A DNA stretch of 33,945 nucleotides. Source: Patescibacteria group bacterium. Lineage in GTDB: Bacteria > Patescibacteriota > Patescibacteriia > DYHP01. The notes beneath the pieces were generated by a model. The model did no database searches, was not told the origin of the DNA, and was given only the letters and a program-made list of their open reading frames with translations. The stretch spans positions 1-33,945 of the forward strand of contig JAYEKT010000064.1 of the NCBI GenBank assembly GCA_034716735.1, given 5' to 3'. Every line of letters starts with the position of its first letter. Position 1 is the first letter of the stretch. This document shows, in pieces, positions 10,223 to 26,595 of the stretch. The translations under genes were made by a program, and so were the position numbers.

Positions 10223-10251
10223 ATTGACTCAAACTGATTTATGTGGTACTA
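10223..10251 (+). promoter_or_regulatory. sigma70-type promoter of the tRNA-Val/Ala locus
   Basis: TTGACT, 17 nt, TACTAT. It ends 12 nt before the first copy of the tRNA-Val 5' end (10264). Confidence 0.6.
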
Positions 10252-10297
10252 TAGTACAAGTTAGGGCGGTTAGCCCCTCACACGGGAGCTTATAGAT

Positions 10298-10552
10298 ATG
10301 TTTTATATTTATATACTGAAAAGCAAAAAAGATGATAGTATTTACATAGGTTATACAAATGACCTGAAAAGACGTTTTGAAGAACACAATAATCTAAAGA
10401 GTAAATCTACAAAAAACAAAGCGCCGTTTGAGCTCATTTATTATGAATCCTATAAGTCAGAATCCGATGCAAAATACAGAGAGAAAAATTTAAAAAGATT
10501 TGCGGGCGCATATACAAGCTTGAGCAGACGAATCAAAAATAGCTTGTTGTAA
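10298..10552 (+). CDS. stand-alone GIY-YIG nuclease-domain protein (84 aa), copy 1
   Basis: 'FYIYILKS...SIYIGYTNDLKRRFEEHN' GIY/YIG/R/E/N motifs. GGGAG lies 9 nt upstream of the ATG, inside the left IR. Confidence 0.85.
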   Translation: MFYIYILKSKKDDSIYIGYTNDLKRRFEEHNNLKSKSTKNKAPFELIYYESYKSESDAKYREKNLKRFAGAYTSLSRRIKNSLL

Positions 10553-10599
10553 GCTCCCGTGTGAGGGGCGGTTAGCCCCTCACACGGGAGCTTATAGAT

Positions 10600-10854
10600 A
10601 TGTTTTATATTTATATACTGAAAAGCAAAAAAGATGATAGTATTTACATAGGTTATACAAATGACCTGAAAAGACGTTTTGAAGAACACAATAATCTAAA
10701 GAGTAAATCTACAAAAAACAAAGCGCCGTTTGAGCTCATTTATTATGAATCCTATAAGTCAGAATCCGATGCAAAATACAGAGAGAAAAATTTAAAAAGA
10801 TTTGCGGGCGCATATACAAGCTTGAGCAGACGAATCAAAAATAGCTTGTTGTAA
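10600..10854 (+). CDS. stand-alone GIY-YIG nuclease-domain protein, copy 2 (identical)
   Basis: Nucleotide-identical to copy 1. Confidence 0.85.
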   Translation: MFYIYILKSKKDDSIYIGYTNDLKRRFEEHNNLKSKSTKNKAPFELIYYESYKSESDAKYREKNLKRFAGAYTSLSRRIKNSLL

Positions 10855-10867
10855 GCTCCCGTGTGAG

Positions 10868-10944
10868 GGGCGGTTAGCTCAGTTGGTTAGAGTGTCGCAT
10901 TGACATTGCGGAGGTCACAGGTTCGAATCCTGTACCGCCCACCA
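10868..10944 (+). tRNA. tRNA-Val (anticodon GAC), CCA encoded
   Basis: Hand-folded cloverleaf: acceptor GGGCGGT/ACCGCCC, D arm GCTC..GAGT, anticodon stem TCGCA/TGCGG with loop TTGACAT, T arm ACAGG-TTCGAAT-CCTGT, A73, CCA. Confidence 0.9.
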
Positions 10945-10947
10945 TAA

Positions 10948-11021
10948 GGGCCCTTAGCTCATTTTGGTAGAGCACTGCACTTGCACTGCAGAGGTGGCGA
11001 GTTCGATTCTCGCAGGGTCCA
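10948..11021 (+). tRNA. tRNA-Ala (anticodon UGC), no CCA encoded
   Basis: Acceptor GGGCCCT/AGGGTCC with the G3:U70 Ala identity pair. Anticodon loop CTTGCAC. T arm GCGAG-TTCGATT-CTCGC. A73 is followed by TAG. Confidence 0.9.
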
Positions 11022-11025
11022 TAGA

Positions 11026-11058
11026 AAAATACCTCACCTTTTGGTGGGGTATTTTTTT
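11026..11058. terminator. intrinsic terminator after tRNA-Ala (also faces the fic 3' end)
   Basis: AAAATACCTCACC-TTTT-GGTGGGGTATTTT followed by T7. Confidence 0.75.
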
Positions 11059-11108
11059 ATTGTAGAATTGCAAGAGTGGTGTCTGTAAAATATACCTTTG
11101 TATATATC

Positions 11109-12437
11109 CTAATGCAGTAATTCTTTTATTTTGTCGGTAGAATAATACAATACGTTTCTGCCTCTTTTTTTTGTATACAAAAACCCCGATCTTTTTAATT
11201 TCTTAAGATCGTTTATAGCTGTTTTTTTAGATACCTGATAAATATTCGTGTAAGTTTTTGTTGTCGTGTAAGCATCCTTTTCTTCAAAATAATATTGTAG
11301 CAATCTAATTTGTCTGTCATTCAAATTATATTTATTTTTCGATAACTTATTTATTATTCTATTTTCGCCCGCTTTAGTGGTCGCATAATCCTTAAATTCA
11401 TCTATTGCCTGTTCTATTTTTCTAATATTATAATCAATAAAATAAGTTAAGTCGTTATCATCTTGTTCGCTATAAACATAGGCCATTCCATATTGTTTAG
11501 AAGAATTTTTTATTATCTTTGAAATGGGTAAATATGCAAATGCCCAATATCCATTTCTTAAAAGATACCAATAAAATAATGCCCGTGCTATTCTTCCATT
11601 GCCGTCTGGAAACGGATGTAAATACCCTATCCAAAAATGGATCATAATAGCTTTTATAACTGGATGCAAGAAAGGTTCCCCAAATTCATCATTAGCAAAT
11701 TTTATTAAGCGATTTAATTCCTCTTTAACAAACTTAATATTTGGGGCAATGTGATAAATTATTTTATCATCAGTTACAATAATATCCTCTTCTTTGTTTC
11801 TAATCCTCCCCTCTTGGTCAGGATTCTCAAAAGTATCCTTAGTTATCATTTTATGTAATTCTATCATCATCTCCAAAGAAAGGATCTTCTCTTTATACTC
11901 CTCCTCTATTGCCTTCATTGTTTCATAATTATTTAGAATCATCTTTTCATCAGTGGTTCTAGGTTTTCTACCTTCTTGTATCATTTTTTTAGCAACTCTT
12001 CTGGTTGTATGTGCGCCCTCTAATTGAGATGATGCTATTGCCTCTTCAATAATACCCCGTGATATGAACTGCATTTTCTTTTTCTCATCTATATCGGCGC
12101 TTGGAATTTTAAGTTGGCCACCAGTATCAAAATCTATATTATGAAAAAATTCTTCTAATCCTGGCAAAGTCTTAATCCATGTAAAAATATTTCCATCTTC
12201 ATCCTTAATAATAGTTTCAGTTTTAATGTATCCTCTAATAGTTTTAACAACATGCCAAAATTGTTCTGGTGTTACGCCTTGAGGCATTTTTTTATATTGT
12301 GATTTTTCCCAAGAAATATATGGCTTAAATGTAGATTGGACAGCATCAAATAAACCCTTATTTTTAGGATTTTCTAATAACTTTGCTACTTTATCTTTAT
12401 CCTCTTGAGATAATTTAGGTTTTCTTAAAACGTACAT
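11109..12437 (-). CDS. fic: Fic-family protein (AMPylase-type) with C-terminal wHTH-like tail
   Basis: 'HPFPDGNGRIARAL' matches the Fic motif HxFx(D/E)GNGRxxR. 'SSQLEG' matches the inhibitory (S/T)xxxE(G/N) helix. Confidence 0.9.
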   Translation of the reverse strand: MYVLRKPKLSQEDKDKVAKLLENPKNKGLFDAVQSTFKPYISWEKSQYKKMPQGVTPEQFWHVVKTIRGYIKTETIIKDEDGNIFTWIKTLPGLEEFFHNIDFDTGGQLKIPSADIDEKKKMQFISRGIIEEAIASSQLEGAHTTRRVAKKMIQEGRKPRTTDEKMILNNYETMKAIEEEYKEKILSLEMMIELHKMITKDTFENPDQEGRIRNKEEDIIVTDDKIIYHIAPNIKFVKEELNRLIKFANDEFGEPFLHPVIKAIMIHFWIGYLHPFPDGNGRIARALFYWYLLRNGYWAFAYLPISKIIKNSSKQYGMAYVYSEQDDNDLTYFIDYNIRKIEQAIDEFKDYATTKAGENRIINKLSKNKYNLNDRQIRLLQYYFEEKDAYTTTKTYTNIYQVSKKTAINDLKKLKRSGFLYTKKRGRNVLYYSTDKIKELLH

Positions 12438-26428: not shown

Positions 26429-26451
26429 TATTTTAGCTTTGAACCCTCAAA

Positions 26452-26523
26452 GCGGGCGTCGTATAACGGCTATTATACATCCTTGCCAAGGATGAGACGG
26501 CGGTTCGATTCCGCTCGCCCGCT
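26452..26523 (+). tRNA. tRNA-Gly (anticodon GCC), no CCA encoded
   Basis: Acceptor GCGGGCG/CGCCCGC, anticodon stem CATCC/GGATG with loop TTGCCAA, T arm GGCGG-TTCGATT-CCGCT, U73. Confidence 0.9.
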
Positions 26524-26595
26524 TTGAGGGTTTTAAGATATTCAAAAACCCCCGCCTACCCTGTCATCCTCTGGTTTATCCAGTGGATCCACAAA

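Follow-up and report, generated by a model that had tools for sequence, protein, structure and literature searches.

Organization of the tRNA-Val locus

We analysed a DNA stretch of 33,945 nucleotides (the window) from a short-read contig (JAYEKT010000064.1) of a Patescibacteria metagenome-assembled genome (MAG), in which two identical units, each encoding a small GIY-YIG nuclease, lie between a promoter and an intact tRNA-Val gene. An earlier note on this DNA, made from the sequence alone, had proposed that these units are a miniature mobile element bounded by inverted repeats and inserted twice into the tRNA gene. A repeat finder identified a perfect two-copy tandem repeat with a period of 302 bp (10264–10865), in which positions 10264–10563 and 10566–10865 are 100% identical. 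Each unit is about 291–295 bp long, carries a single open reading frame (ORF) of 84 codons, and is preceded by GGGCGGTTAGC, which corresponds to nt 1–11 of the intact tRNA-Val downstream. This 11-mer is present at exactly three sites of the window (10264, 10566 and 10868), compared with 0.1 expected by chance. The earlier description of two identical units, a threefold 11-mer and an intact tRNA at the end was reproduced with the repeat finder and ARAGORN. The features of the locus, all on the forward strand, are the following:

10224–10252 (+), sigma-70-type promoter, TTGACT (10224–10229), 17 nt, TACTAT (10247–10252), with a TG extension; resident tRNA promoter and the sole visible promoter for both ORFs
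10264–10274 (+), fossil tRNA-Val 5' fragment (nt 1–11, GGGCGGTTAGC); first direct-repeat copy, read as the target duplication
10273–10292 (+), left arm of unit 1, GCCCCTCACACGGGAGCTTA; conserved core CCCCTCAC at 10274–10281, Shine–Dalgarno-like GGGAG at 10284–10288
10298–10552 (+), ORF 1, predicted 84-aa minimal Slx1/UPF0213-type GIY-YIG nuclease (Pfam, PDB profile, AlphaFold2 (AF2) model and Foldseek)
10550–10569 (+), right arm of unit 1, TAAGCTCCCGTGTGAGGGGC; shares nucleotides with the stop codon and with nt 1–4 of the tRNA-fragment copy that follows
10566–10576 (+), second copy of GGGCGGTTAGC; its GGTTA is the loop of the inter-copy hairpin
10575–10594 (+), left arm of unit 2; pairs with unit 1's right arm in a predicted 20–23-bp hairpin (10547–10597)
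10600–10854 (+), ORF 2, identical to ORF 1
10852–10871 (+), right arm of unit 2; ends with GGGC, 4 nt that are also nt 1–4 of the functional tRNA-Val
10868–10944 (+), intact tRNA-Val(GAC), the putative reconstituted target (Rfam tRNA, 71.2 bits)
10948–11021 (+), tRNA-Ala(TGC), 3 nt beyond tRNA-Val, starting with GGGCCCTTAGC; of the target type GGG-N4-TAG-C, unoccupied in the window
11021–11060 (+), hairpin followed by a T-run (ATAGAAAAATACCTCACC / GGTGGGGTATTTTTTTAT, 89% complementary), tentative end of the transcription unit; absent from a consensus terminator scan

Both tRNA genes are intact according to ARAGORN and Rfam (71 and 66 bits). The promoter-like TTGACT-17-TACTAT, which matches the consensus at 9 of 12 positions and has a TG extension, is present as claimed, and GGGCGGTTAGC begins 11 nt after it, not 12. 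The inverted repeats are indeed perfect, and they are longer than the 13–16 bp initially given: each unit has 20 perfectly paired nt (GCCCCTCACACGGGAGCTTA / TAAGCTCCCGTGTGAGGGGC), or 23 pairs counting G-U, and the 14-mer of the arm occurs four times in the window, compared with 0.5 expected. At the inter-copy junction (GTGAGGGGCGGTTAGCCCCTCAC), the hairpin said to bury the GGGAG of the second copy does fold in the prediction (−47.5 kcal/mol, z = −9.8) and contains that motif, with a stem of 20–23 bp (10547–10597) in place of the shorter one described. Folding of the putative precursor (10260–10945) predicts this hairpin, formed by right arm 1 and left arm 2, together with an outer stem between left arm 1 and right arm 2. 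In the predicted minimum-energy structure the distal 5' fragment competes for the 3' strand of the acceptor stem; as the proximal tRNA is intact, RNase P processing at the proximal +1 is suggested to be the productive path. From this layout we infer that the ORFs would be co-transcribed with the tRNAs. No ORF-less miniature copies were found within the window, and a search of the locus against Rfam matched only the tRNAs, with no family for the hairpin or the leader.

The encoded GIY-YIG protein

The initial assignment of the 84-aa ORFs to the GIY-YIG superfamily is borne out by the match to PF01541, which scores 66.7 bits against a cut-off of 22.6 (E = 2.3e-18). NCBIfam contains no fitting family, the group I intron endonuclease model reaching 22 bits against a cut-off of 56. 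Residues Y5, Y16, G18, R26, E29, H30, N31 and E62, which include the catalytic Tyr, Arg and Glu residues, are invariant in 30 sequences, and the mean column identity is 73% across many Patescibacteria lineages. The AF2 model (pLDDT 89) comprises strands at residues 2–9, 15–20 and 44–52 and helices at 23–31 and 55–83, which corresponds to the beta-beta-alpha-beta-alpha fold of GIY-YIG nucleases, and when it is used as a Foldseek query the UPF0213 protein 1zg2 and Slx1 rank above I-TevI and UvrC. The same order is found in the PDB profile search, with 1zg2 (BH0048) at 1.6e-10, 1ywl (EF2693, also UPF0213) at 9e-8 and SLX1 at 2e-3, and with no UvrC or I-TevI match below 0.01. As judged from these profile and model comparisons, the protein is a predicted minimal, stand-alone GIY-YIG domain that belongs to the Slx1/UPF0213 branch. 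A profile built from close relatives retrieves 17,655 clusters at 50% identity with E ≤ 1e-3, and 3,025 with E ≤ 1e-10. We set aside a phage origin, given that phage records match at 36–39% identity only and the PHROG matches are weak.

Recurrence at tRNA genes

To place the window locus among its relatives, we used a scan with one genome per species, which yielded 80 loci (L numbers below), nearly all from Patescibacteria MAGs, and we called the neighbouring tRNAs with tblastn and ARAGORN on all of them. At 21 distinct loci a tRNA starts within 39 nt past the stop codon, and in 17 of these the 5' 9-mer of the local tRNA is repeated 25–38 nt before the ATG, giving the layout tRNA 5' fragment–CCC(C)TCAC–arm–ORF–arm–GTGAG–intact tRNA. 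Eight tRNA species are occupied (Val-GAC, Val-CAC, Val-TAC, Ala-TGC, Ala-GGC, Ala-CGC, Ile-TAT and Lys-TTT), every one of which begins with GGG, and in every case the upstream fragment matches the local tRNA. Thus, the units abutting tRNA 5' ends with a duplication, which the earlier note had suggested looking for in relatives, were found, and the recurrence of the same junctions at 17 independent loci and eight tRNA species speaks for its proposal of a site-specific, tRNA-targeting miniature mobile element.

The closest relatives illustrate how the element ends are retained while the target changes. The 87% identical protein P0002 lies before tRNA-Ala(TGC) in the arrangement GGGCCAGTAGC-CCCTCACCTAAAAAGATT-ATG...TAA-AATCTTTTTAGGTGAG-GGGCCAGTAGCTCAG, and the 76% identical P0025 lies in the same layout before tRNA-Val(CAC); in both, the outer CCCTCAC/GTGAG is kept, and the inner arms differ yet still pair. 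The protein tree pairs the window element (Val-GAC) with L001 (Ala-TGC) as sisters, and likewise L034 (Val-CAC) with L035 (Ala-CGC), the latter two from one MAG. The tRNA-Ala(TGC) that is free in the window is occupied in L001, L014, L017 and L028. Since close protein relatives reside at different tRNAs and the fragment matches the local tRNA each time, the repeat is a duplicated target and not cargo of the element. The same observations rule out a model in which the element carries its own tRNA 5' segment as an att-type core. An intron of the group I or archaeal bulge-helix-bulge type is likewise ruled out by the complete tRNA downstream, and no Rfam intron matches were obtained at E ≤ 1.

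The left fragment is located at the expected start position of the tRNA: in 10 of 19 loci a −10-like hexamer ends 4–11 nt ahead of it, compared with 13% at random positions, and at other loci it follows a preceding tRNA. A second perfect tandem pair, also with a 302-bp period, was found at a tRNA-Ala in L017, from a different lineage and with 64% protein identity.

Other GIY-YIG genes were observed close to tRNAs on some of these contigs. A second, more distant subfamily with no flanking stem (L001 1509–1835, 52% identity; L200 3185–3285) lies after tRNAs that are cut short in the T-arm or T-loop (in L001 the 5' part that is left is Val(TAC)-like and ends with GGTCACAGG, in L200 it reads ...GATTCAAAT), and in L001 its stop codon TAG falls inside nt 8–10 of the next tRNA-Val; this is apparently a distinct lineage that associates with tRNAs and uses a different insertion point. 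A third GIY-YIG domain, unrelated and with 24% identity, is found in L001 (2498–3493) within one called ORF together with an RluA-type pseudouridine synthase, and comparison with L002 (790–860) places the start of the divergence just past the tRNA-Ala. This ORF may represent another GIY-YIG insertion, giving an apparent fusion with an RNA-modification enzyme.

The flanking stems

A search for the best flanking stem in 70 nt on each side of every ORF revealed stems of 20–25 bp in 70 non-redundant members of the family, including nearly all members at 50% identity or above. An outer core of 8 bp, CCCC[C/T]CAC / GTG[A/G]GGGG, is conserved family-wide; it takes the form CCCCTCAC/GTGAGGGG in the tRNA subfamily, and (A/T)CCCCCACAC(C)/GTGTGGGGG(T/A) or CCCCCCACC/GGTGGGGGG in other subfamilies. 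The tRNA-targeting units form just one subfamily within a far larger family. The inner arms differ from lineage to lineage, with 51 distinct 9-mers among 55 stems, and pair with their own partner at 97% of positions, versus 44% with partners from other loci. An ungapped alignment of 48 arm pairs gives pairing in 92% of the cells versus 61% in shuffles, 269 cells with double-sided changes versus 89, and a covariation score of 0.73 versus 0.17, with only 42–54% pairing when the register is slid. Since only the outer 8 bp are conserved and the remainder covaries, the inverted repeat behaves as a hairpin and not as a classical terminal inverted repeat (TIR) bound by a transposase. In many members the start and stop codons lie within the stem. 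A first count appeared to show an excess of G-U pairs (65 vs 17) but was a scoring artefact, and the claim of RNA-specific selection on the stem was dropped; the inverted repeat may be maintained at the DNA level.

A core of the family type does not always enclose a nuclease gene: in L086 (1884–2014) the inverted repeat CCCCGCACTAAAATTT...AATTTTTAGTGCGGGG surrounds an apparent tRNA gene on the minus strand and not a GIY-YIG ORF.

Flanking duplications and miniature copies

Duplications were counted at 58 loci with the element ends fixed at the conserved C-run and G-run, using cross-locus comparisons as controls. An exact 4-bp flanking repeat (TAAA, TTAT, TTTA, TCAA, TGAA, TTGA and others) is present at 16 of the 58 loci, against 1.3% in the control, and belongs to the CCCCCACAC subfamily. 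A repeat of 7 or 8 bp (NNNNTAG, tRNA nt 4–10) is present at 11 tRNA loci, against 0.2% in the control. At tRNA genes the G-runs and C-runs of the element ends overlap the GGGC...AGC of the tRNA, and two boundary readings fit the sequences equally well. On one, nt 1–11 of the tRNA would be duplicated and the element would have the ends CCCTCAC...GTGAG; on the other, CGGTTAG (nt 4–10) would be duplicated and the ends would be the symmetric CCCCTCAC...GTGAGGGG. On the 7-nt reading the G-run of the element replaces the GGG of the tRNA, which would account for the restriction to GGG-initial tRNAs. The boundary variants in L015 and L017 (GTCCCTCAC) and in L012–L014 (T11 in the tRNA, C at the junction) are compatible with both. 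The earlier claim of an 11-nt target duplication therefore stands as regards a duplication at the tRNA, and its length can be read as anything from 7 to 11 nt.

ORF-less copies with the same core and duplications are found in L035, L060, L048/L049, L206 and L016/L022. They include two tandem units of 78 and 75 nt at a tRNA-Ala (L035 1274–1433; units at 1274–1351 and 1359–1433), hairpins of 32–38 nt with a TAAA repeat (L060, for example 1271–1308), units of 101–133 nt in L048 and L049 (L049 1306–1438 with a TTGA repeat), and a hairpin of 24 nt at the tRNA position of both L016 and L022.

Empty, filled and degraded alleles

The exact window ORF has no match in the contig index, and an empty counterpart of the window locus was not obtainable, the upstream neighbour protein having no relative above 54% identity in the protein database. 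As the protein database contains no close relative of the window genome, we used the L006 locus, which consists of an ORF of 202 codons, tRNA-Val(CAC) and the gene for seryl-tRNA synthetase (SerRS), and contigs were fetched through relatives (67–100% identity) of its upstream 202-aa protein. In L204 the tRNA-Val(CAC) follows directly after the spacer and the element is absent; L006 and L208 contain the full element; L206 and L200 contain the same element minus most of the ORF, the final ~35 nt of which are kept along with a right arm that is identical. Empty, filled and ORF-less alleles at one locus are what a mobile element would show, and the empty site that the earlier note had called for at the window locus is thus available for this relative (L204 vs L006). 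Across these contigs the neighbouring gene shows 87–95% nucleotide identity, with the empty allele not placed as an outgroup; this indicates gain or precise loss within a shallow clade. In L006 the spacer terminates with GTGAG, apparently left over from a previous copy upstream.

Two further contigs show alterations of the tRNA itself. L207 (1870–2020) contains a different tRNA-Val(CAC) allele (GGGCACG...), followed by a mini hairpin CCCGTACAAA...TTTGTGCGGG and then by a 3' fragment (ATTCAATCCCCGCATCACCCA) of the tRNA carried by its relatives; this arrangement suggests that tRNA replacement accompanied element activity. In L200 (3196–3250) the tRNA body past the ORF-less element departs from its relatives at about nt 26. 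Its tRNA-like anticodon arm (GTCG-CCTCAGG-CGAC) would present UCA, the T-loop is interrupted by another GIY-YIG ORF at the contig end, and ARAGORN calls no tRNA there.

Other genomic sites

The family is also found at other stable-RNA genes. In L033 (1398–2050) a 291-nt insertion occupies a helix of the RNase P RNA, with the C- and G-runs standing in for the native helix tip according to Rfam, and the ribozyme gene is thereby split by a protein-coding hairpin. Rfam also places members at the 5' edge of the RNase P RNA in L031, L032 and L077 (around 1750) and near the 3' end of the 16S rRNA in L081. Those in L062, L066, L067 and L087 abut tRNA 3' ends, and further members occupy AT-rich intergenic sites. 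A metagenome scan with the window arm CCCCTCACACGGGAGC gave 112 single-strand chance matches, mostly in high-GC contigs, none with a GIY-YIG gene or a paired arm.

L020 and L072 are also among the members associated with RNase P RNA genes, which lie either within the gene or at its 5' edge. Several CCCCCACAC-type elements (L059 and L064, right flank at about 1775–1790; L051 and L082) have TTATCCACA, which is the DnaA-box consensus, immediately next to their right end; they are flanked by a TTAT duplication, and the target continues with CCACA, similar to the element's own left end. Insertion at DnaA boxes of a replication origin was considered and rejected, the neighbours being ComM-like and LexA-like genes and not dnaA, and we make no claim regarding oriC.

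Interpretation and alternative explanations

In our view, the two units of the window are probably copies of a small selfish insertion element that resides in stable-RNA genes, uses the host promoter and rebuilds its tRNA target. More tentatively, we suggest that the family could be a new superfamily of prokaryotic DNA transposons, whose sole protein is an Slx1-like GIY-YIG nuclease acting on hairpin-forming ends. It would have autonomous members and members resembling MITEs (miniature inverted-repeat transposable elements), would have spread over the Candidate Phyla Radiation (CPR) into tRNA 5' regions, RNase P RNA, rRNA and intergenic sites, and would persist in essential genes for stable RNAs by restoring or imitating the RNA of the host.

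The mechanism that we propose is as follows. The element would consist of the 8-bp terminal core (CCCCTCAC...GTGAGGGG), the pairing lineage-specific arms and the nuclease gene filling the loop. The tRNA subfamily would integrate into the 5' part of tRNA genes beginning with GGG-N4-TAG (Val, Ala, Ile, Lys), duplicating tRNA nt 4–10, or nt 1–11 on the other reading. The GIY-YIG protein itself may nick both the target and the hairpin bases, its presumed target being the junction of GGGCGGTTAG and CTCAG, with the duplex GGGCGGTTAGCTCAGTTGG as a candidate substrate and with a stagger that would set the size of the duplication. The G-run at the right end, together with the duplication, would rebuild a complete tRNA downstream, so that the essential gene survives, and would leave a fossil 5' fragment behind the tRNA promoter. 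As the element would have no promoter of its own, transcription would proceed from the tRNA promoter; the arms would form a long precursor stem enclosing the ORF, the inter-copy hairpin would bury the second ribosome-binding site, and RNase P would still release the tRNA at the proximal +1. The array is presumably recent and could reflect either a new insertion into the restored target or an event between the 11-nt repeats (slippage or unequal exchange).

Several observations weigh against a mobile element of this kind. We know of no transposition chemistry for a GIY-YIG domain alone, and the protein is a single domain of 84 aa with no DNA-binding domain. Under the fixed-end definition no flanking repeat is found at 22 of the 58 loci, and the duplication length varies with the subfamily (4 vs 7–11 bp), being ambiguous at tRNAs. 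In the L006-type locus the spacer ahead of the left fragment also differs between the empty and the filled alleles, which indicates either that the insertion was not a clean cut-and-fill event or that a deletion followed. Dispersed copies within one MAG are 60–85% identical and no recent intragenomic transposition was seen, and hence movement is rare or inheritance mostly vertical. The unbiased count of isolated stem mismatches (G-T 10 vs A-C 15) shows no G-U excess, so that nothing marks the sense RNA as the selected strand. Finally, dN/dS values of 0.03–0.09, with saturated dS, indicate strong and long-lasting purifying selection, which is unusual for a purely selfish nuclease and could reflect a host function.

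Concerning the second copy only, the question is whether a second transposition took place. A single insertion followed by local tandem duplication, with replication slippage or unequal exchange involving the two 11-nt direct repeats that lie 302 bp from each other, is compatible with an insertion element, and we give it an even chance. Direct repeats flanking a unit are a classical substrate for duplication, the two copies are 100% identical including the spacer, and the only other identical pair found (L017) is also in tandem with a 302-bp period. The divergence of the dispersed copies points in the same direction: local events appear far commoner than jumps, and local doubling is the sole recent event seen. 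However, re-insertion into the regenerated adjacent target would yield exactly the same product, as the earlier note had already recognised in proposing that the unit had been inserted twice; the two units are present, and either route leads to them. The tandem ORF-less units of L035 differ in sequence as well as in length (78 vs 75 nt), which fits an old duplication as well as two insertions, and the GTGAG remnant in L006 indicates only that arrays form and decay.

Among the explanations that dispense with an insertion element, a free-standing homing-endonuclease gene was considered, which would have spread between genomes only by double-strand-break repair into the same tRNA locus, the inverted repeat being a signal for RNA processing or expression and the tRNA fragment a trace left by a single, ancient illegitimate event. 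In favour of this, homing is a classical role of GIY-YIG nucleases, the copies are old and mostly syntenic, and the L006, L206 and L204 alleles could be exchanged by homologous recombination. In phage T4, the free-standing GIY-YIG homing endonuclease SegB lies in the tRNA gene cluster and cleaves there (PMC2330249). Like the Seg genes, the window ORF is a selfish, tRNA-associated GIY-YIG nuclease gene with no surrounding intron. However, Seg proteins and I-TevI have a C-terminal DNA-binding domain, spread by homologous repair, and come with neither inverted repeats nor duplications, whereas the window protein is a catalytic domain only, bracketed by a hairpin and a duplication, and the 84 residues leave out the part that gives homing GIY-YIG enzymes their long recognition sites. 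Homing makes no target duplications, whereas matched ones recur at 17 tRNA loci and eight tRNA species, together with 4-bp repeats at 16 other, non-tRNA loci. Closely related proteins are found at different tRNAs, ORF-less miniature copies with duplications are scattered at other sites, the nearest relatives are Slx1/UPF0213 and not I-TevI or Seg proteins, and the phage collection matches at 36–39% identity at most. We therefore regard homing as an unlikely explanation.

The selection acting on the protein would also fit a domesticated host gene, for example for repair or for stable-RNA or tRNA metabolism, kept in stable-RNA operons for expression, with the stem as a regulatory or processing signal and copies that no longer move. 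Besides the low dN/dS and saturated dS, the conservation over many Patescibacteria lineages (mean column identity 73%) and the age of the dispersed copies agree with this, and stems that often include start or stop codons are expected for translational control. Slx1 cuts branched and stem-loop DNA and works with Slx4 in eukaryotic repair, and the UPF0213 proteins of bacteria lack a functional assignment; the window protein resembles Slx1 and UPF0213 in being a minimal stand-alone GIY-YIG domain, and has its best profile and fold matches there. By analogy, an Slx1-type structure cleavage would fit a hairpin-bounded element as well. The survey of the GIY-YIG superfamily of 2006 proposed prokaryotic Slx1-like proteins as repair or RNA-metabolism factors and treated the bacterial ones, UPF0213 included, as a vertically inherited repair family, not as genes of mobile elements, leaving open whether other members of the superfamily are 'molecular parasites' (PMC1564403). 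A host gene would, however, not be expected to show presence/absence and ORF-less alleles in close relatives, tandem amplification (window and L017), several divergent copies in one genome at locations unrelated to one another (RNase P RNA and 16S rRNA among them), or ORF-less copies that retain the arms only, and it has no need of target duplications. For these reasons we judge domestication improbable as the explanation of the family.

That the two-copy array is an assembly artefact is scarcely credible: the contig comes from a short-read MAG and the exact protein has no match in the contig index, but assemblers collapse repeats and do not expand them, L017 has the same kind of perfect pair in an independent MAG of another lineage, and numerous assemblies made with different pipelines show the single-copy architecture. 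With 11-nt repeats, one copy gives no de Bruijn loop at the usual k, from which we reason that the array has at least two copies, and the true number could be higher.

Comparison with known systems

Insertion sequences and MITEs, such as the Correia elements of Neisseria, have terminal inverted repeats, short duplications, ORF-less copies and transcript hairpins. The units share with them the terminal inverted repeats, short target duplications, autonomous and ORF-less copies, transcript hairpins and, as seen for a relative, insertion polymorphism. Unlike insertion sequences, they have no DDE, HUH, serine or tyrosine transposase, their only ORF being the GIY-YIG nuclease; conservation of the terminal repeat is limited to 8 bp, the remainder covaries, and the targets include stable RNAs, with the tRNA rebuilt. 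Another comparison is offered by repetitive extragenic palindromic (REP) sequences and their REP-associated tyrosine transposases (RAYTs), which are HUH/Y1 enzymes; REPtrons consist of a RAYT gene and inverted REP hairpins, and REPs carry no target duplications. In both cases a small nuclease gene lies between inverted hairpin repeats and gene-less hairpin copies are found elsewhere, whereas the enzyme here is of the GIY-YIG type and target duplications are present. Integrative elements that enter tRNA genes by means of a tyrosine integrase carry a tRNA 3' segment and recombine at the 3' half of the tRNA. The units likewise insert in a tRNA gene, restore an intact tRNA and leave a partial copy as a direct repeat; in contrast, it is the 5' end that is duplicated, the repeat is derived from the target, and there is no integrase.

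A further comparison lies within the same bacterial group, where GIY-YIG proteins are encoded by non-intron insertions in the rRNA genes of CPR bacteria (Tsurumaki et al. 2024, PMC11270868), a report that makes no mention of inverted repeats, duplications or tRNAs. Our family shares with these the non-intron insertion of a GIY-YIG ORF in stable RNAs, L081 (16S) and L033 (RNase P RNA) being such cases. The classical intervening sequences of 23S rRNA are stem-loop insertions that RNase III removes with no ligation. The units may be similar: a long stem, a candidate substrate of RNase III, is predicted in the transcript, relatives reside in RNase P RNA helices (the 291-nt insertion) and 16S rRNA, and the stem mismatches show no sense-strand G-U bias. 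Unlike rRNA insertions, the tRNA subfamily leaves the mature RNA uninterrupted.

Literature searches, in which subscription papers were poorly covered and absence of evidence is to be read as such, gave no description of elements of this kind, consistent with the view in the earlier note that the class is undescribed. In these terms it would be an insertion element with terminal inverted repeats and target site duplications that combines an unprecedented nuclease with a hairpin architecture and targets among stable RNAs. If the GIY-YIG protein does mobilise the units, it would be a new catalytic class among prokaryotic transposable elements, would give the large UPF0213/bacterial Slx1-like family its first biological context and would explain the GIY-YIG insertions in CPR rRNA genes. 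It would also mean that a parasite can live in essential single-copy stable-RNA genes of very small genomes, by rebuilding the tRNA 5' end and borrowing the tRNA promoter. Recognition of the family should help the annotation of CPR genomes, where it would account for split genes for RNase P RNA, ORFs joined to the start of a tRNA and fossil pieces of tRNAs, and a mini nuclease of 84 aa that is specific for a sequence or a structure and whose DNA hairpin partner is defined would be attractive for biochemistry.

Neighbouring features of the window

Directly beyond the tRNA pair, in convergent orientation, lies a gene for a Fic-domain protein of 442 aa with a C-terminal helix-turn-helix-like region (11109–12437, − strand), and the GC content of positions 11001–12000 is low (0.30). 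Elsewhere in the window, tRNA-Gly(GCC) (26451–26524) has an inverted repeat in its leader and trailer, CCCTCAAA / TTTGAGGG (26444–26530), which together with the acceptor strands makes a 15-bp stem whose outer bases resemble the element core (CCCTCA...). This flanking stem could be a processing stem or a relic of an element.

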